A DNA stretch of 63,991 bases, filler included, from Licmophora abbreviata (lineage: Eukaryota): assembly GCA_900291995.1 (NCBI GenBank). It is 12 parts of 12 records of this genome, joined end to end, with 100 filler letters (N's around TTAATTAATTAA, not from the genome) between each part and the next. Parts side by side here need not be neighbours in the genome. Positions count along the whole stretch, not along the records: positions 21,125 to 38,538 come from OLMU01003120.1; positions 38,639 to 41,870 come from OLMU01003121.1; 10 more parts are not named here. One strand, given 5' to 3'. Positions 33,389 through 63,991 of this stretch are shown here, one piece after another. The notes below the pieces were generated by a model. The model saw only the letters and a list, made by a program, of their open reading frames with translations. It did not search any database and was not told the origin of the DNA. The position numbers and the translations under genes were made by a program. Within the stretch, counting starts at the first letter, position 1. Each line of letters opens with the position of its first letter.

Positions 33389-36300
33389 ATGAGTCAACCC
33401 GCCCTGGACCAAGAGGAGCGTGAACCGGAAGAAACTGCTGCAAACACCATCATGACTTCTAGTTCCACTCCTCCTGCTGCTGCTCAAGAAGAAGAGAGTG
33501 CACTTTTACCGACTACTGCTCTGGATTCCCATGATACCTCGTACTCTCGCAGTTTGACTTCCGCGCAGACCTTCAAGGAAGGCGGGAATGCACACTTTTC
33601 CGCCAAACGATACGAACCAGCTCAAGTCAGTTACGAAGAAGGATTGAAGGAATGTGCACAGATACAAAGTACACAGAATGGGAGTAGCGACGCAGCAGCA
33701 GCGCTCCAGACGGCACTGCTTTCCAATTTGGCCATGGTCTTGTTGAAACGAAAGGACTACGAACAAGCTTTGCAACGATGTCATCAAGCGCAAGCGCTGG
33801 ATCCTTCCAATCCAAAAGGTGACTTTCATTGTGCTGTGTTCTTGGAGTTTTTTATATTCATTGTACCAACTTATTCTTGTTGTTGTTGTTGTTGTTGTTG
33901 TAGTGTACTATCGACGAGCCTTGGCCAGGGAGGGCATTTTCAATCAGTCTCAAACGACCAACAGAAACAACCACACAGAAACAGCACAGCTGGAGTTGTT
34001 GAGAGAGGCCATGGATGATTTACGAACGTGTTTGGAACTGTCCGACGAGGAAGATGCCGGTGCCAAGCAACATTTGAGACGACTCGAGGCCTTGGAACAA
34101 TCGAAAAGACCATCGTTCTCCTTGTCTGGATCCCTCCCTACTGCTGTCGTCACGTCAAATGAGACACAAACCAATGGTAGTATACATGCTTCCACAGCAC
34201 TATCATCCTCTACAACCAAACTCGATGCCATGCCATCGGCGCAACAACAACGAACTGATGTCGTTCGACTGCTCTTGGCACATGCCACCGCCTGCACACC
34301 CACCAAGCACGAAGCATACTTTTTGATTCAATACGATTGGTGGACCGACTGGTGTCGTCATGTCGACTTCTTTTACTGCATAGAAAATCCAAACAATCTG
34401 CAGGAACGGCAAGAGCAAATTTTGTCGTGGCTGCCAACCGGAGCGTGGCTGGTCGAATATGACGGCGATGAAAAGAAACAGCAGGTGCATTCGGAAGACA
34501 GCAGCGATGACGATGAAGAGGACGGATTTCCATTTCCCCGACAGCTAGACAACTCCAACTTGTTGCTATCCGGAAGGAGAACTTGGGAGAAGCATTGGTA
34601 TCCAGCACTCGGTGAAATGCCACGTTTGAAACCCAGCTTGACGAGAAGTCATGACTACGAAGTGCTGCCGCGGGAGGTCTATCATGCGTTGCGGTTCTGG
34701 TACGGTGAAGTGACGCCTCCTATCTGTCGACGCGTCGTCGAGTTCACGAAGAATGGCGAAAAACGACTGGTGCTACCATTGTACGCTTCTGACGTACTTG
34801 CACGAGGACGGATGGAACGGGAAACGGAAGGAAATAGATGTGGAGCATGCTTTGCTCCTTACGCCAAGGCGAGATGCAAACAGTGTATGGTGCGATATTA
34901 TTGCAATCGGAGCTGTCAAGAAAGTCATTGGGCGTTTCATAAAGCAGAGTGCAAGCAGTTTCGACTTGAGGGGAAAGAGTTGGACAACCCAAATTACAAC
35001 AACATAGCATCGAAGCGAGTACATGTGGGAGGCCGCGTTGGACTGCACAATTTGGGAAATACATGGTATGTTATCTGGTGTGCTGCGTTATGCAACAACG
35101 TGACATAGGCGAACTTTGTCTCACTTGATGCACTCGCCTTAGCTTTATGAACTCGGCGTTGATTTGCATGAGCCATGCGACGCCCCTCACGAGGCACTTT
35201 TTGTCGAACCAATTTCTCGCGGATGTCAACACTACGAATCCTTTGGGGACAGGTGGCAAGCTCGCCATGGCGTACGAGCAGGTCATCAAGGAGCTTTGGC
35301 GCAAGTCGTCGCCTGTAAGCCCCACTAGTCTCAAACGAGCGATTGCCATGTTTGCACCTCGATTTGCCGGTGTCAACCAGCACGATGCGCAAGAGTTCTT
35401 GGCATATCTGTTGGATGGACTCCATGAAGATTTGAATCGCATTCGAAAGGCTCCTTACGTCGTAACTCCTGATGTAACTGGGTCCAATATGCGTGTGGCG
35501 GGAGCGGAAGCCTGGGGTGCACATCGGCGTCGCAATGATAGCTTGGTGATGGACACCTTCTACGGTCAGTTCAAGAGCACTTGCGTCTGTCCCCAATGCG
35601 ACCGCGTTTCAGTTTCGTTTGACGCATTCAACCATGTGAGCCTGGAAATTCCGTCCCGGCTCAGCATGACGAGGACGATCCCCGTGTTGCTTTTCCCTGA
35701 CGGTCACGGCGCCGAAGCAGAGATTCCTGTACGATATGCGATCACTGTGCAACGTGGAGCGTTGGTAGGGGATTTGCGAAAGGGTCTGTCGGAGCTGTGT
35801 AGAATTCCCACAGCGTGTCTTGCATTTTGCGACGTGTACGAGCATTCAATTTACGAGATATTTCAAGATTCCAAGCCTCTCACTCTGATTCGAAACTCGG
35901 ACGTGGTTGCCGCATACGAAGTGAGTCCTTATACGAATGGTTCAGTGCATGCATTTTGCCATCACGTGCGAGTCGAGGACTCGACTAAAGGAGTCGACCC
36001 CGAATATGATGGCCTCGCGGCGCCTGACGAGACAGGAAATCGATTCGGATTTCCTTTTATGACTTCTTTTGGTGTCGAGAGTACCTGCATGAACGTCTGG
36101 GAGCAGGTGTGGCAACAAGTATCCAAGATGGCCGACGCAAGCACAGTGCGTGCCAGCCGAAAAGAAGATAGCCCCGAAAATTGTGTCAGGAACCTGCTTC
36201 AGATTCGAGTCGTTGATAGTCAGGGAAATGCGAGGCCTGTATTTCTAGACGATGCCGTCGGGGAAGAGGTCGTCGAAATGGATACACTTGACAAAGCATC

Positions 36301-37006
36301 GATACTCCCACCCAATTTGGACAACGTACTTGCTGAATACTTGGGTAGAGACTGTGCTGAGCGTTTCTTATTTCTGCGTTTGGAATGGCTGAACTCAACC
36401 ACAGAATTATTGACAATGGACGAGGCACGGTTCATGACACATTCTGAACACCCAAGTCTGGTGGAAGCCATCAAGAAAGAGAAAAGCGTGAACGGGAGAA
36501 GCGGCGTCTCACTGGACCAGTGTTTTGAGACGTTCACAAGACCAGAGCGACTGGATGAGCACAACAAGTGGTATTGTTCTGCTTGCAAGGATCACGTGCA
36601 AGCCATGAAAACGATGGAGTTGTGGAGACTCCCTAACATTCTTGTGGTACATCTCAAGCGATTTGAATTCAAGCACGCCTTGCGTCGAGATAAGCTTGAT
36701 ACGTTTGTGGAGTGTCCTTTGGAAGGACTCGACATGACGAAACACTGTGCATCGACTCGTGTAGGGCGCGACGCTTTTGTTGTCGACGGAGTTCCTGCTG
36801 CGTACGATTTGTTCGCTGTTACGAATCACTACGGTCGAATGGGTTTTGGCCACTATACTGCTTTCGCCCGGCGCTGGGACGAAGAGGGTTTGTCAAAGGA
36901 GTGGCTTGTCTTTGACGATTCGAGCGTTCAAAGCATGGGAACTGGCGATGGGGTGATAACTCCTGCAGCGTATGTTCTTTTTTACCGTAGGCGCATATTC
37001 CATTAG
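33389..37006 (+). CDS. Ubiquitin-specific protease with TPR, DUSP and MYND domains (USP4/15-like catalytic domain)
   Basis: TPR FKEGGNAHF..SNLA..KVYYRRA, DUSP YFLIQYDWW..DYEVLP..WYG, and MYND CGAC..CKQC..YCNRSCQ..HW..HK..C. Cys box GLHNLGNTC|FMNS spans intron 35066-35142. His box NHYGRMGFGHYTA. First intron is 33819-33903. Confidence 0.93.
33877..33901. repeat. (TGT)n microsatellite in the USP intron
   Basis: TGT run just before the acceptor site. Confidence 0.8.
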
Positions 37007-37044: not shown

Positions 37045-40000
37045 CTAAAATTGATTGTAGAGAAACAACGCTGCGATCTCTTTGCCACAATCGAGAGCTT
37101 CGTACACCGACTGCGCCTCGTCCAGCGACGCCCTTCTCGTTACAAGCCGTGAGGGTTGAATACGCTTTACAAGCTCCCACGTAAGCGCGAATCTTCGATT
37201 TTTAGTCCATATTCCGCGAAGCTCTGCGGGGATCTCACTGACTTGTGAGGTGCGAATCATTTTGTGGCTCCGATGGAAGTCAATCCCAAGCTTTAAATTG
37301 ACTTTTCCGTTGCCATACCACGACCCGACGATTGTCCGACCTCCCGAGCGGGTATTGTCGATGGCGGACTGAAGAGCCTGGGCGCTTCCGCTTATTTCAA
37401 CAGTCACATCAAAGGGCCCAGAGCGTGACGCAGAAGACGGAAGAATGGCCTGCGATGCCCCCATGTCAGCGGCTGCTGCCAATCTGTCAGGTATTGTGTC
37501 AAATGCAGTAATGGGAGCGATATGGTCGGCAAACGAAGGTTGTAAACGGAGAATCGCTGTGACAAGAAGACCGATTAGCCCCTGACCAAATACAGCAACC
37601 TTCTCTCCAGCTCTGACATGTGCATCGTGAACTAGTGACAATGCAGTCTCGACCGATGGCATGAACGTGGCGTCTTCGGGGTCGATACCTTCGGGAACCA
37701 CCTGAATAGCACCTCGGTCAACCAGCGCATGGGACGCATGAGGTGAGAAGCAAAAGACAAGTCGCCCAAGTAATCTTTCTGCATCCGTGACATCCGAGCC
37801 ACACCGAGTTACGCGTCCCACGAGGCTGTAGCCATACGCAAGTGGATAGGTCATTCGTTCTTCCGCCATTCCTTCTATATTCAAATCTAGCGCGGCATCG
37901 TCGAACAACCCCTTGAATATTTTCAGCTCGGTACCGGAACTTATCAAAGATGCAACTGAAGTAACTGAAATAAGAACGACAAGGCTTGAGTCAGAAGATG
38001 GCACGAGCTGACGCGCTACACACAAGTCAACTTTACCTTCGACATCATTGGGCTCTAGGTCTCTTGATCTCTTGTAGGATGTATGGATTGTCGTGACTTT
38101 GTATGGTGATGTAAACTGGATCTCTTGTATAGATCGTGCACCGCCCAATCTTTCTCCGGTCCTTTCAGGCACAGCGCTTAAATATTGAGCTTCTTTTCTC
38201 ACCGCTGTGTCACCTCGCAACTTGAATAGCAGGTCGACATTGGTAACATGAATCTTCGGTCGGTTACGACGGGCTCTGCGGATCCAGTCAGTCGAGTCCC
38301 ATTGGCTCTTCAATATTTCCAGTCCTGCGGTCGTCCCAAAGAAGTAGAGCATGGTCTCCCACAAATAACCATTCTTGTTGGGATCGATCCACCAATTCGA
38401 CGGTCCCTTGCGAAGTAACCTCGCTCCATGACCCTCGAACGCCGTGATGAGTGCCAATGGATCCAAGTTGTGCCCGTGTTTCTTACTCAGCGCATTGGAA
38501 TACAGACGAAACGCTACCGTGTCGGATGGTAGACGACGNNNNNNNNNNNNNNNNNNNNNNNNNNNNNNNNNNNNNNNNNNNNTTAATTAATTAANNNNNN
38601 NNNNNNNNNNNNNNNNNNNNNNNNNNNNNNNNNNNNNNACTCAGCGCATTGGAATACAGACGAAACGCTACCGTGTCGGATGGTAGACGACGCCTTGTCA
38701 CCGCAGAACTATCATTCTTCTCCTCTCCAAACGGTTCCGGTGGCCAAAACTGAGTCGTCCCCGAAAATGTGATGGGAAAGTACACGAGTGTATTGTCATC
38801 GGTCGCTTGGTCACTACTCTTTGACGTTCGCTTGATGAACGCCAACAGATCCTGTACAAGCCGATATGGGTCCATCAAGTCAGCAAAGCAACAGCCCACA
38901 ATGAGATGTGGCCTCGGAGGCGGTTCATCGTAATGTGCTCCACTGGCAATGGTAGCAAAGTCATACATGTGTAAGTGCACCGTCACGGGGTTAGTCACAT
39001 GCGCAAAGACGAGGGCATCATCATGGTTCTTGTCCTGTGGCACAAATCCCAACCTCAGCATGGTCTCTCGGCATGCCGCCAACAAGCCAATATTCGGTTC
39101 ATATGCGTGGTACACAATCGTGTCACCAGTGGCTTGTTCCCCGCCCGTGTCACTATTGAGCAATACTTCCGCCACCAACGGTCGCTTGTCACTCGTACCC
39201 TTCAACAGGAGCTCCAACATCGACAAGGCTCCTGCTCCAAGATCCACAATACAAAGTGTATTCTTTGTAGTGTTGCAAGTGTGTCGTCGTAGGCGTTGTT
39301 CGTTCACGACATGTTCAATCATGTCATTCCATGTCGATGCATGTATCGACTCGGCATCGACTTTGTTTTTCGCAGCAAGATATCGGACATCGGAAAATGT
39401 GTAGTTCCTATCGATATGTCGGAAGGCAAGATTCAAAGCATGTTGCAATGTTCTGCCATCATCTTTATCATCACCATCACCACGATGACACACCCGAATG
39501 GCATCGATACCAACACTTCGAGCCGCGTGCACGTTGCGAGAGGAATCGTCCAAGAGGATAATGCGATGAGTGCGGATGGAGTGCTCTGCGATCACCTTTT
39601 GATAGAATATGTTTGGATGTACCTTGGTGGGATATTCCATTGTCGTTTGGTCCTCATCATCATTATCACTCTGGATCAAATCGGGGGTCAATAGTCCGGT
39701 CCAGGGCACACGCGAGAGTCCCAACGCACACAATACTTTTCGTACATGCCAAGACGGAGAGTTGGATGCCAAATAGACAGGACATGGAAGGCTTGGACTG
39801 CCATTGGTCTCAAACCACGAGCGGAGTTCGGAGCAAGATATCATCTTTGGGAGCGCCGTATCTGAATGGAAATCGTTATCGGAATGCGTGTAGCCTGTCG
39901 TCGTCACTGTATCTTGATAGGAGGACGATCCTTCCTTTTTAAAAGTACAATGCAACAATCCAGAAACGTCAATCGGTGTATACACTTGTTCGTAGTAGTC

Positions 40001-40504
40001 CTTCATTTGAGCAGGACTCATGCGGGATCGCAATCCTTCGATCGTTGATCCATGCGACCGAAAGAGATCATCTGCTTGTTGGGGTGACATTTGAAAATGT
40101 TTGTGGCAATAGGCATGCGTATTTTCCACAATCTGTCGTTCGATGCCAGCACAAGTACCATTTTTTGTTCTCAGAACTAATGCTTCTTCATTGTAGAGCG
40201 TATTGTCGACATCAATAATCAAGACCAATGAACGATCATCATCATCATCATCATCGTCGAAAGTGTTGCGAGCACCACCACGCATGGACATTGCTACTCC
40301 TAATGGCAGTCGATTCATGTTTGGAGGAGGCCCGAGTGATGGATGACATGATGCTACTACGAATGACGGCGATGGAAAGGGTAATAGAAACTGTAGTATT
40401 GAAACAGCAACGACCGTCCATCCGCTCCTTGCCAAAATTGCTGCCGAGGCCGCAAGCATTATCATCATGGAGTCTCTTCTCTCCCGTCGTCGTTGTTGTT
40501 GCAT
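37045..40504 (-). CDS. Trifunctional fusion: HAD hydrolase + class I SAM methyltransferase-like + MDR dehydrogenase (~1100 aa after closing the false gap)
   Basis: 38485-38538 duplicates 38639-38692, and merging the two is in frame (RLYSNALSKKHGHNLDP). HAD: IIDVDNTLY and LLDDSSRNV. MTase: RYLAAKNKVD and IVDLGAG. MDR: ISSGTE, YGYSLVGRV and VFGQGLIG. Confidence 0.85.
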
Positions 40505-40911: not shown

Positions 40912-42252
40912 ATGGACGACGACAACGCCATCCAGAACGAGGCGCCTCTGGAGTCTGGCGTGTCTCCAGAAGAGCAGAACGGCTCTTCTTCTACTTCAGC
41001 CGTGATCGGGAGCTCCGCCATGCGGCCGGTCTTTCTTGGAAATCTGAATTCGAACTACACGGCCGAGCAAGTCCAAGAGATCTTTGAGCGTCCCATGCTT
41101 CCTCCTTCTCTGGAAGACGCAGACAGCTCGTTTCCTCCCATCCCCGTCGAGAGGGTGGACCTAAAGAGAGGATACTGCTTCGTCTTTCTCAAAGACGCTC
41201 AGACGCAGCAAGACAAGGAGACGGCCGAGCGATTCGTCTCGGACATCAACGGCATGTAAGCACCCACCACACGATTGGATTCACGTCTTCGTACAGTTCT
41301 ACGTCTCGTCACTACCTGCGAAAAACGTAAATGACCCGACTCGCCCTGTGGCAGTGGCCATCCAACAGACGACCACCACGACATGCCTCATTCACTCCTC
41401 CATAAAAATCATCAGTTTTCGTCGTCCCCTTCGTTCGCTCTCTTCGACACAACACAGATCTACACAAAATCATCCTATATACTGACTTCCCTACTCTTCC
41501 TTCTTCTCCCTATCATACTACTCTCTACCTCTTGCTCTCTCTCTCTACCAGGGCCGTCCCCAACGTTTCCAACGCGCTTCGCGCCGAGTTCGCCCGCGGC
41601 GATGGCCGTACCAAGCGCAAGGAGGACGAGCGTCGCAAGAGGATCCAGCCCAGCGACACGCTCTTCGTCGTCAACTTTCACGAAGAAACCACCAAACAGG
41701 AAGACTTGCGCATGCTCTTTGAACCCTACGGAGAACTTGTTAGGATTGACATGAAACGCAACTATGCCTTTGTGCAGTTCCGAACCATTGAGGAGGCCAC
41801 GCGGGCCAAGGAAGTTACCAACGGAGGCAAGTTGGATCAAAGTGTCTTGACGGTGGAGTATGTTGCGAGGNNNNNNNNNNNNNNNNNNNNNNNNNNNNNN
41901 NNNNNNNNNNNNNNTTAATTAATTAANNNNNNNNNNNNNNNNNNNNNNNNNNNNNNNNNNNNNNNNNNNNCGTCGAGGACCTCGCGACTACGGGCGTCGC
42001 GACGATCGTTATTACGATCGCCGTTCTCCTCCTCGGTACCGAGGACGGAGTCGTTCTCGCAGTCGTAGTCCTCCGCCGCGGTATCATCGCAGTCGTAGTC
42101 CACCCCCGAGGCGGGATTCTTATGATGATGATCGTCGTTACTCGGATCGAGGAGGACGCAGTAGTCCGGATGGATATCGGGGACGTGGACGATCGTCGGA
42201 TCGTGACTCCTACAGTCGTGGTGGAGACCGGGATCGTGGGTATCGTGCGTAG
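40912..42252 (+). CDS. SR-type splicing factor with two RRMs and an RS domain
   Basis: RRM1 PVFLGNL..KRGYCFV, intron 41256-41551, RRM2 TLFVVNF..KRNYAFVQF. After the gap it reads RGRSRSRSRSPP..GYRA stop. Confidence 0.9.
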
Positions 42253-46447: not shown

Positions 46448-46752
46448 AGTGCCATGCCATACTTGGACTGTCACATCATGGATAGAGCGTGACGTTGAGA
46501 GATTGTTGCTTTCCTCTTGCATCATCGAACGCTATTCTATTCTACCATTAAATCATTTCAATTCACAGAACACATGCGATATGGTCAGCACATTACTTAG
46601 CGAGACTGCCNNNNNNNNNNNNNNNNNNNNNNNNNNNNNNNNNNNNNNNNNNNNTTAATTAATTAANNNNNNNNNNNNNNNNNNNNNNNNNNNNNNNNNN
46701 NNNNNNNNNNCATTACTTAGCGAGACTGCCCGCTCTTACTGTAAAACCCTAG

Positions 46753-62510: not shown

Positions 62511-63991
62511 ATGAGAGCCTGGTTCTCTAGTCTCCTCAAGCTGAAAACGGTCGTCTTTCTCGCTGCCGCCGTCAGTAATCTCGGCACCGCTGCAGCACGT
62601 AACTTTCAAAAGGGCGTGCCTCTTTACTCGGCACAGTCGTGCGACGCGCTCACTCCGCACACGTCCTCGCAATGGTGGTATTCNNNNNNNNNNNNNNNNN
62701 NNNNNNNNNNNNNNNNNNNNNNNNNNNTTAATTAATTAANNNNNNNNNNNNNNNNNNNNNNNNNNNNNNNNNNNNNNNNNNNNAATCTCGGCACCGCTGC
62801 AGCACGTAACTTTCAAAAGGGCGTGCCTCTTTACTCGGCACAGTCGTGCGACGCGCTTACTCCGCACACGTCCTCGCAATGGTGGTATTCGTGGTCCACG
62901 ACAACTGGCTTCACTGGTAAAAAACGTTCTTTGTGTGATCGTCCCGAGCAAGCGGTAAGCAAGATAAGGGATGCCGGGATGGAATTCGTTCCCATGTTTT
63001 GGGGCTCTGTTCCTTCTCTACCGCTCGATAGCGAGACCGAGACGAACCTACAGGAGGCAAGCTACTTGCTGACCTTCAACGAGCCTGACCGCACAGATCA
63101 GTCCAATATCCTGCCCGCAGATGCGGCGCAGCTGTGGCCTCAAATCGAGAAGATCGCGGGTGACTACGGTCTTGAACTGGTAGCTCCATGCACGACGGGC
63201 AATAGAATAGGACTGGACTGGTATGACGAGTGGCTCGGGAATTGTACTATGCTGTACGGTTCAAGCTCTTGCGTCTTTGATTACACGTGTGCACATCTTT
63301 ATTATCAGCCCTGGGATGATGCCCTTGGATCCTGCGGCCCTGACGTGGTCGAATGGGCCTGCATTGGCAACCAAGCAATCAAGGCGTCCACAAGGATCAA
63401 CCAGTGGTATGATAGGTACGGAAAAGAGATGTGGCTCACTGAGTTTGCCTGTGGGTTTGGCATCGAAGGTGAAACGGGCTGCCCCGAAGCACGGCAGTTA
63501 GCTCTTATGGAGCAAATGCTGCCGATACTGCACGACAATCCAGCTGTATTTCGCTACTCTTGGTATAGTGCATTCAATATCGATTGGGTGCACAACAGTC
63601 TCAATGAGCTGGTCTGGGACGTATCTAAAGCACAGATCTGTCGCAACACAGAATGGCTCAACCACTTCGGAACTCAAGACGGACATTTTAAGGACTTGCA
63701 CGAGTGCATTACAGCCGCTGATGATAGACCTGACTGCGCGTCGCCACTTTCACTGTCAATGAGCAATAGCAACTGTTTTTGCGCCACCGATAGATGCGAT
63801 GTCCTGGATAGCGCTCACAGTTCAATGTGGACCTTCAAAGAGGTCGGGCCAAGGAGTCCATCTGCCTTGACGCCCCTGGGTGAGTACTACAACAACTACG
63901 ATGGAGAGACCGAAGAAGAGGACGCCGGTGAGGATGGCTTTCGGTCGCCTGCACGCTGCTTCTCAGGACACACTACTGTTGTGGTAAGGGG
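62511..63991 (+). CDS. Secreted GH128 (Glyco_hydro_cc) beta-1,3-glucanase-like protein with a Cys-rich insert and the start of a probable Hint domain (runs off the window)
   Basis: 62577-62683 duplicates 62784-62890, so the gap is false. The merged frame is open to the window end: WWYSW, EFVPMFWG, LTFNEPD, WLTEFA, RYSWY, LTPLGEYY, then CFSGHTTVVVR. Confidence 0.85.

Follow-up and report, generated by a model that had tools for sequence, protein, structure and literature searches.

A three-domain diatom gene uniting phosphatase, methyltransferase and zinc-less dehydrogenase modules, with relatives in an orphan prokaryotic gene cluster

Introduction

BchC, the 3-hydroxyethyl bacteriochlorophyllide a dehydrogenase, belongs to the medium-chain dehydrogenase/reductase (MDR) superfamily and carries an I-S-T-G-T-E-type motif at the place where zinc-dependent MDRs have their cysteine ligand. 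Phosphatases of the HAD superfamily are known from riboflavin synthesis, where Escherichia coli YigB and YbjI and plant PyrP2 dephosphorylate 5-amino-6-ribitylamino-uracil 5'-phosphate, according to PMC13151069. Among 6-pyruvoyltetrahydropterin synthase (PTPS)-like proteins, PMC5445326 gives 'FGPAQ' as the signature of a type called PTPS-IV, to which a brief mention in one paper assigns, from unpublished work, a role in F420 synthesis. Here we describe a gene from the diatom Licmophora abbreviata (GenBank assembly GCA_900291995.1) whose product joins relatives of some of these enzymes in one polypeptide. It occupies positions 40504..37045, minus strand, of a 63,991-nucleotide (nt) stretch of joined records, referred to below as the window.

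Behind a hydrophobic leader, the gene encodes a HAD phosphatase domain, a class I S-adenosylmethionine (SAM) methyltransferase and a zinc-less MDR. Our overall reading, to which we assign a probability of roughly 0.6, is that the fused gene represents a three-step module of a diatom version of the GTP-derived pathway of a prokaryotic gene cluster. Literature searches found no paper linking the diatom fusion to this orphan cluster, full-text searches found none naming the cluster product, and NCBIfam held no model naming any specific cluster protein.

Gene structure

The gene is mis-split in the present assembly. Its two halves are separated by a linker at 38539-38638 (no strand), which consists of 100 nt in the form N44 + TTAATTAATTAA + N44, is artificial and non-biological, and recurs as the same string in 11 copies within the 64-kb window. 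A sequence-only reading of this DNA had reported that the 54 bp on either side of the gap are identical and that the two open reading frames (ORFs) merge into one frame, and both observations stood. Direct comparison of the linker flanks gave exact identity over 54 nt (38485-38538 = 38639-38692), and an end overlap of this length exists at none of the other linkers, one of which has 20 nt and nine of which have none. On the minus strand, 40504..38639 holds 622 stop-free sense codons and 38538..37045 holds 497 sense codons plus the stop codon of the fused gene (37045..37047), with the 18 residues at the end of the first translation being the same as those at the start of the second. When the overlap is counted once, leaving out its second copy at 38485..38538 (minus strand), the result is an open frame of 3306 nt, or 1101 codons plus a stop.

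Homologues carry the case for the join. The metagenome locus L024 encodes an uninterrupted ORF of 1063 amino acids (aa), to which the halves align at residues 30-600 and 583-1060, and the 18-residue overlap corresponds to it exactly once (residues 583-600). Likewise, an alignment to 26 full-length homologues contains no indel where the halves meet. The reads are the point on the other side: the best-matching DNA run contains 0.21 of the sampled words, and two short metagenome contigs of one run could be placed, neither of which crosses the join. One 153-nt metagenome contig spans 38451-38538 and extends 65 nt beyond that contig end. As neither of the placed contigs bridges the join, it rests on homology, which we grade as strong evidence.

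Two separate genes, or a mis-scaffolded chimera in which the 54-nt repeat is a real duplication around further sequence, would agree with the lack of a bridging contig and with the many ~300-aa 'standalone' MDR entries (62-73 % identity) that gene callers have yielded. Such an arrangement is nevertheless very improbable. The halves meet on the same 18 residues of the L024 ORF, at a locus that shares a convergent UCH gene with the window (see below); the 26 homologues and a transcript from MMETSP are collinear with the joined frame; and the bacterial methyltransferase aligns through the gap as a single domain. As to the standalone entries, P0088 (316 aa) and a 946-aa protein fall into one cluster at 90 % identity, which shows that short entries can be fragments, and the ~300-aa entries probably are. 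Many database entries would then be exon- or contig-fragments that resemble standalone bacterial dehydrogenases. We conclude that 40504..37045 is one nuclear diatom-type gene interrupted by a scaffold linker between overlapping contig ends, and we are nearly certain of its leader-HAD-methyltransferase-MDR architecture as a single gene.

The merged frame had also been described as intronless, and this is probably wrong. A 72-nt, in-frame, stop-free segment (38036..37965, minus strand) starts with GTAAAG and ends with TTTCAG, giving it GT..AG borders. The 24 residues that it encodes, which fall in the N-terminal part of the dehydrogenase domain, face a clean gap in L024 and in the transcript-derived homologues P0002, P0010 and P0013; P0001, the closest database relative, has an in-frame insert of its own at the same site. 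The segment is probably a small phase-1 intron, in which case the mature protein would comprise ~1077 aa if it is spliced, or 1101 aa if it is not.

Further collapsible joins may be hidden elsewhere in the window, at the linkers at 46611-46710 and 62684-62783. One of these has the 20-nt exact end overlap; the other has a left flank whose final 25 nt reappear 82 nt into the right flank.

Domains of the fused protein

The domain coordinates given here were derived from residue numbers and are approximate to a few residues; all lie on the minus strand. The start codon and leader (residues 1-47) occupy 40364..40504. A hydrophobic segment spans approximately residues 23-50, with a 15-residue Kyte-Doolittle maximum of 1.89 at residue 29, and a comparable segment stands ahead of the HAD motif in 23 of the 28 family members examined. 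The leader is probably a signal peptide or signal anchor, judging from this hydrophobicity profile. In diatom proteins targeted to the plastid, the signal peptide precedes an ASAFAP-type cleavage motif whose +1 residue is aromatic. In some centric homologues, small residues and then G-W follow the hydrophobic core. Between the leader and the HAD domain (window ~40290-40270) is a short conserved (P)RGG motif, with eight consecutive aspartates after it in the window; the motif is also present in the N-termini of L024, P0297, P0279, P0296 and P0135, and it could mark a processing site or the mature N-terminus.

The phosphatase domain (residues ~91-342; 39479..40234) resembles Sdt1 and other pyrimidine 5'-nucleotidases. 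All four catalytic motifs of HAD subfamily IA are present (DxDxT, SN, K and DD, with DVDNTLY at residue 98), placing the domain in that subfamily, and D84, D86, S214, N215, K253 and D281 (P0300 numbering) are invariant in 26/26 homologues. Its match to the NCBIfam pyrimidine 5'-nucleotidase model TIGR01993 covers two stretches (E 2.8e-14), scoring 53.4 bits against a curated equivalog cut-off of 142.9, and the Pfam HAD_2 match is weak. The best PDB sequence match is the XMP phosphatase of Arabidopsis (7ef6), and JGI labels several family members 'FMN phosphatase YigB'.

The methyltransferase domain is the one divided by the gap. Its N-terminal part (residues 366-622; 38639..39409) contains a YL.AKN.VD helix, a D.GAG SAM loop, and the motifs Y.A.E, GCCFADL and YFPITF.G.T, and its C-terminal part (joined residues 623-713; 38212..38484) contains HGHNLD, S.W.I, YLW..M..F and N.DLLF. 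Across the 26 full-length homologues, the helix (Y-L-x-x-K-x-x-x-D), the loop (D-x-G-x-G), Y-x-x-x-E, A-D-L and several later positions are invariant, among them D389, G391, G393 and E425. No Pfam model matched the domain in the window, whereas its bacterial homologues do match Methyltransf_12/25/11, and hits in the ESM Atlas were confined to short Zn-ADH clusters and generic clusters of methyltransferases. For the orthologous domain of L024, an AlphaFold2 model based on 32 aligned sequences reached a pLDDT of 91 and a pTM of 0.90, and all of its top Foldseek matches in the PDB are small-molecule SAM methyltransferases, the best being histamine N-methyltransferase (1jqd, E 1.1e-8, probability 1.00). 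TM-scores on the query are only 0.43-0.46 and identities ~10 %, and such matches do not reveal the acceptor atom or substrate. Profile matches include the CurJ, PsoF and OvsM methyltransferases. By sequence and model together, the fold, the D/E-x-G-x-G loop and the acidic residue ending beta-2 identify a class I SAM methyltransferase.

A profile-profile alignment links this domain to the prokaryotic cluster. When the 26 eukaryote proteins were compared by hhalign with nine cluster methyltransferases, the match had a probability of 99.8 % (E 7.3e-29) and covered template columns 6-310 of 311, and neither set shows any variation at the Y, L, K and D of the N-terminal helix. BLASTP adds collinear local matches to the methyltransferase gene at L001:4101-5024 on either side of the gap. 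Since the hhalign match runs from end to end, the middle region across the gap is a single domain, homologous over its full length to the RYLAAK-type methyltransferase of the cluster.

The remainder of the protein, from joined residue ~743 to the end (37048..38124), is a zinc-less, BchC-like MDR. Its motifs are SSGTELK, YGYS, a GQGLIG nucleotide loop followed by a NAD-type aspartate, FHRSH and SQVS. Pfam reports ADH_zinc_N (E 1e-5) and Glu_dehyd_C, the bacterial homologue L015 matches ADH_N, and MDR structures in the PDB are matched at E 3e-8. Membership in the superfamily follows from the GxGxxG Rossmann fold and the GroES-like domain, both of which the profile aligns to 4oh1 and 6ie0. In these two zinc MDRs, the zinc-binding GHE is the residue-level counterpart of GYS; the N-terminal stretches concerned score weakly (4.0 and -1.6 bits) but are mutually consistent. 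With GYS at the GHE position, and the cysteine position not aligned residue by residue, the domain is no zinc alcohol dehydrogenase by its ligands. The aspartate after beta-2 aligns with that of the NAD-dependent L-iditol 2-dehydrogenase, which makes NAD(H) the likelier cofactor, and Y751-G752-Y753, the G.G..G loop and the aspartate are all invariant (26/26).

The model with the widest coverage of the dehydrogenase is NCBIfam BchC (TIGR01202), which aligns over profile positions 19-255 of 308 (E 8.7e-9); the bacterial cluster MDR aligns over positions 3-294. The respective scores of 34.9 and 54.3 bits do not reach the equivalog cut-off of 291 bits. Identity in this domain is unusually high, at 62-72 % to the aligned diatom-type relatives and ~40-46 % to divergent relatives of ~1000 aa.

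In the alignment, then, all three domains keep their catalytic motifs in 26/26 homologues: the HAD motifs, the SAM loop D.G.G with Y..E, and the G.G..G plus aspartate of the MDR. The features that the sequence-only reading had picked out in the protein were likewise recovered, namely the hydrophobic leader, the HAD motifs DVDNTLY, GSTIEGL and DDSSRN, the methyltransferase-like motifs RYLAAKNKVD, DLGAG and YFPITFSG (with which the fold match and hhalign agree), and GYS instead of GHE.

Distribution and origin of the fusion

A phmmer search of the first half of the protein against 1.84 billion representative sequences returned 172 proteins, most of them 600-1100 aa long. Full-length fusions with a named source come from Skeletonema marinoi, S. 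potamos, Thalassiosira profunda, Thalassiosira sp., Nitzschia inconspicua, Mayamaea and Mediolabrus. The fusion is thus already in public diatom annotations, where it appears as 'hypothetical' or 'alcohol dehydrogenase' and carries no assigned function. Other diatoms transcribe it as one mRNA, as seen in an MMETSP transcript (P0272, 945 aa, 'type:complete') that covers all three domains. The architecture is conserved in the named diatoms and in ~1000-aa relatives that are only ~30 % identical, and the family extends, with a partial protein, to the non-diatom ochrophyte Phaeothamnion.

Metagenomes provide further examples. An alignment of the MDR retrieved 80 loci, of which 45 are fusion-type (MDR at least 45 % identical) and 35 prokaryote-type. 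Collinear HAD, methyltransferase and MDR domains share a strand in 31/45 fusion-type loci, and 40/45 show at least the methyltransferase and MDR; in the remaining five, the contig begins at the MDR. Eukaryotic genes adjoin the fusion in four of the longer fusion-type loci, including protein kinase, SET+MYND, DAGAT, bZIP and UCH genes. In the window itself, a 619-aa ORF at 35147-37006 (plus strand) encodes the C-terminal part of a UCH/USP ubiquitin hydrolase convergent with the fused gene. The same convergent gene, with UCH, DUSP and zf-MYND domains, lies downstream of the fusion in L024 (5866-9750, minus strand), so that synteny is conserved.

These observations bear on bacterial contamination of the eukaryotic assembly, an idea prompted by the fact that the nearest non-fused relatives of two of the domains sit in prokaryotic operons. 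Its probability is practically negligible, given that the closest relatives are named diatom proteins, that the flanking ORF is a eukaryotic UCH/USP gene in retained synteny, that the gene contains a GT..AG intron-like segment, and that neither of two scans across 185,579 prokaryote species genomes turned up a fused form or any relative exceeding 40 % identity.

The phylogeny of the dehydrogenase is consistent with the fusion having arisen once. A quick maximum-likelihood tree, rooted at the midpoint and comprising 85 MDR domains, groups the 29 fused-type rows together (SH-aLRT 96), apart from the 56 prokaryotic ones. Fusion-type loci in this tree were limited to 15 chosen ones, and high-scoring segment pairs shorter than 250 residues or containing stops were excluded, by which L026 and L060 were also lost. 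A horizontal origin, as the sequence-only reading had inferred, is plausible: the fused clade is single and nested among prokaryotic MDRs, although a midpoint-rooted tree does not name the donor.

Two observations concern the surroundings of the fusion. Upstream of it and divergent in the window is a 115-aa ORF (40912-41259, plus strand) that looks, by eye, like an RNA-recognition motif. In P0141 (955 aa), a RING finger precedes the HAD and methyltransferase domains and is probably the result of two neighbors being merged by the gene caller; a Pfam scan of the unusually long family members showed no extra fused domain besides this one.

The prokaryotic gene cluster

In the two prokaryote scans, a profile made from diatom MDRs only was too strict and gave no relative. 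After fused relatives of ~30 % identity were added, 23 loci were recovered, from Chloroflexota, Myxococcota, Thermodesulfobacteriota, Spirochaetota, Bacteroidota and two archaeal families. The diatom MDR is 26-40 % identical to those of the 23 loci over the full domain of ~300 residues, and 31-40 % identical if L023 is set aside.

Neighboring genes were counted by tblastn over all 23 loci and by Pfam scans. Near the MDR were found a PTPS-like gene (22/23 loci), GTP cyclohydrolase II (GCHII) and/or a reductase-type RibD_C gene (19/23), a family 4 glycosyltransferase (GT4; 17/23), and a ~308-aa methyltransferase with an initial RYLAAK..D-type motif (12/23), followed by a flippase-like LPG_synthase_TM protein (8/23), a CDP-alcohol phosphatidyltransferase (7/23) and DUF7475 (7/23). 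Similarly, PTPS adjoins the MDR in 33 of the 35 prokaryote-type metagenome loci. The cluster described in the sequence-only reading, with MDR, RYLAAK-type methyltransferase, PTPS, GCHII/RibD and glycosyltransferase as adjoining genes, therefore exists, and the prokaryotic homologues of the MDR and methyltransferase are indeed neighbors within it. We have very little doubt, on the basis of these alignments, that the methyltransferase and MDR domains of the diatom protein are homologous to two separate, often adjacent genes of this cluster.

The composition of the cluster offers some clues to its chemistry. Naturally occurring bacterial fusions among the proteins P0346-P0357 join MDR with PTPS (P0349, P0350 and P0352), PTPS with GT4 (P0348, P0354 and P0355), methyltransferase with PTPS (P0347), GCHII with PTPS (P0356), and PTPS with a ComB-like phosphatase (PF04029; P0351). 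These fusions show that the MDR, PTPS, GT4, methyltransferase, GCHII and phosphatase activities work together. In addition, a CDP-alcohol phosphatidyltransferase and an LPG_synthase_TM/HpnL-like flippase-like protein flank the cluster in L004, L006-L008, L010-L013 and many of L064-L103, which hints that the bacterial product ends on a membrane lipid; the eukaryotic fusion is not accompanied by genes of this kind. The best PDB match of the L001 PTPS is SCO6650 (3d7j, E 5e-10), and the published signature may capture only part of the cluster PTPS group.

Proposed function

If the fused gene is indeed a module of the cluster-type pathway, its three activities can be arranged as follows. The substrate would derive from GTP and be either a phosphorylated ribityl- or ribosyl-aminopyrimidine or a pterin-like compound formed from it by ring closure. 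The HAD domain would strip the side-chain phosphate, a step proposed because HAD enzymes dephosphorylate the analogous intermediate of riboflavin synthesis (PMC13151069). The MDR would oxidize a secondary alcohol of the side chain using NAD+, much as BchC does on its own substrate, and the ketone thus placed beside the 5-amino group could permit closure of a pyrazine ring. The methyltransferase would transfer a methyl group from SAM to the product. Fusion may serve to channel labile intermediates, and the leader would route the enzyme to the secretory/endomembrane system or onto the plastid-import path. That the substrate class is the same as in the bacterial pathway is, in our estimate, a little short of an even bet, and we hold the specific order of reactions to be unlikely. 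The fullest version of the idea is only tentative: an ochrophyte trifunctional enzyme, derived from a bacterial methyltransferase and MDR welded to a phosphatase and routed to the secretory pathway or plastid, would make an undescribed methylated metabolite of the pteridine or ribitylaminopyrimidine type.

Several results weigh against reading the gene as part of the cluster pathway. The partner-gene search covered the window and the fusion-type loci, and PTPS-like, GT4, GCHII, RibD_C and membrane-transferase genes were found neither in the 64-kb window nor beside any of the 45 fusion-type metagenome loci. A search for the longer or fused form of the cluster PTPS returned 12 proteins, 58-73 % identical to the bacterial query, none of them eukaryote-named; as the search was word-based, this is weak evidence of absence. 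Since these searches did not recover the genes that most constantly accompany the MDR in bacteria, the diatom module may act on another substrate. In the cluster itself, a HAD hydrolase occurs in 1/23 loci, and the window domain matches it only at E 0.21 by BLASTP, which is not significant; the two are of different subfamilies and related only at the level of the superfamily. The phosphatase step was therefore not inherited from the cluster. Moreover, the family matches of all three domains lie below curated cut-offs. The signature FGPAQ was found in 3/23 and 0/35 prokaryote-type loci, and with it mostly missing, the match to 3d7j is what equates the cluster with 'PTPS-IV'. Finally, as no product of the bacterial cluster is known, the substrate class is deduced from the presence of GCHII and RibD_C.

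Taken together, two cluster-type enzymes and a differently sourced phosphatase make the protein a chimera and not a whole pathway. Of the 'single-polypeptide pathway' suggested earlier, what stands is the presence of three activities in one protein; the PTPS-like, GCHII/RibD_C and GT4 steps are lacking in the window and at the 45 loci.

The absence of these genes could also mean that the methyltransferase and MDR were recruited, alongside a eukaryotic Sdt1-type phosphatase, to act on an unrelated substrate outside any GTP-derived pathway, such as a nucleotide, the phosphate of a sugar or polyol, or a precursor of a pigment or lipid head group. The HAD domain, which is like pyrimidine 5'-nucleotidases and XMP phosphatase and unlike the cluster HAD, would suit such a history, as would the fact that the best MDR family by coverage is BchC, a pigment enzyme, and the supported branch that parts the fused clade from all prokaryotic MDRs. 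On the other hand, the methyltransferase and MDR retain the motifs of their cluster families along their full length, and the unusual conservation of the MDR suggests a constrained, retained substrate. The missing neighbors say little, because the genes of eukaryotic pathways are usually unlinked, and the keeping together of both cluster genes argues for a retained joint chemistry. On balance, we regard co-option for an unrelated substrate as rather unlikely, and we favor a module of the diatom version of the cluster pathway.

Under the favored reading, the fusion serves as a 'Rosetta stone', indicating that one and the same molecule undergoes methylation, NAD-linked oxidation and dephosphorylation. 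It would extend a pathway seen in 23 species-representative genomes of six phyla and in 35 metagenome loci, or a derivative of that pathway, to the diatoms, which are both ecologically dominant and transformable. If the fullest version of the idea is true, major marine primary producers make an undescribed methylated metabolite. Because the fusion shows which three activities cooperate and diatoms are genetically tractable, a diatom knockout combined with metabolomics could also expose the product class of the bacterial orphan cluster.

Comparison with known systems

Each part of the protein has a described counterpart from which it also departs. The phosphatase domain is like the Sdt1-type pyrimidine 5'-nucleotidases (TIGR01993) and 7ef6, which are its best NCBIfam and PDB matches and share the HAD-IA set of DxDxT, S/T, K and DD; it is unlike them in scoring below the family cut-off and in being the N-terminal module of a three-domain protein. 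Its resemblance to the HAD phosphatases of riboflavin synthesis is confined to the superfamily and the inferred substrate class. The modeled methyltransferase domain finds its best structural matches in histamine N-methyltransferase and other class I SAM methyltransferases that act on small molecules. The dehydrogenase shares with BchC the form of a short MDR of ~300 aa, and differs from it in genomic and domain context and in a score far below the equivalog cut-off. Lastly, the prokaryotic GCHII/RibD_C/MDR/PTPS-like/GT4/methyltransferase cluster contains an MDR and a ~308-aa methyltransferase homologous to the diatom domains, the latter with the N-terminal YL.AK..D helix and C-terminal S.W and D.L motifs that are also present in the diatom protein. 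What sets the diatom system apart from the cluster is that the methyltransferase and then the MDR are fused behind a HAD domain and a hydrophobic leader, in a eukaryote.

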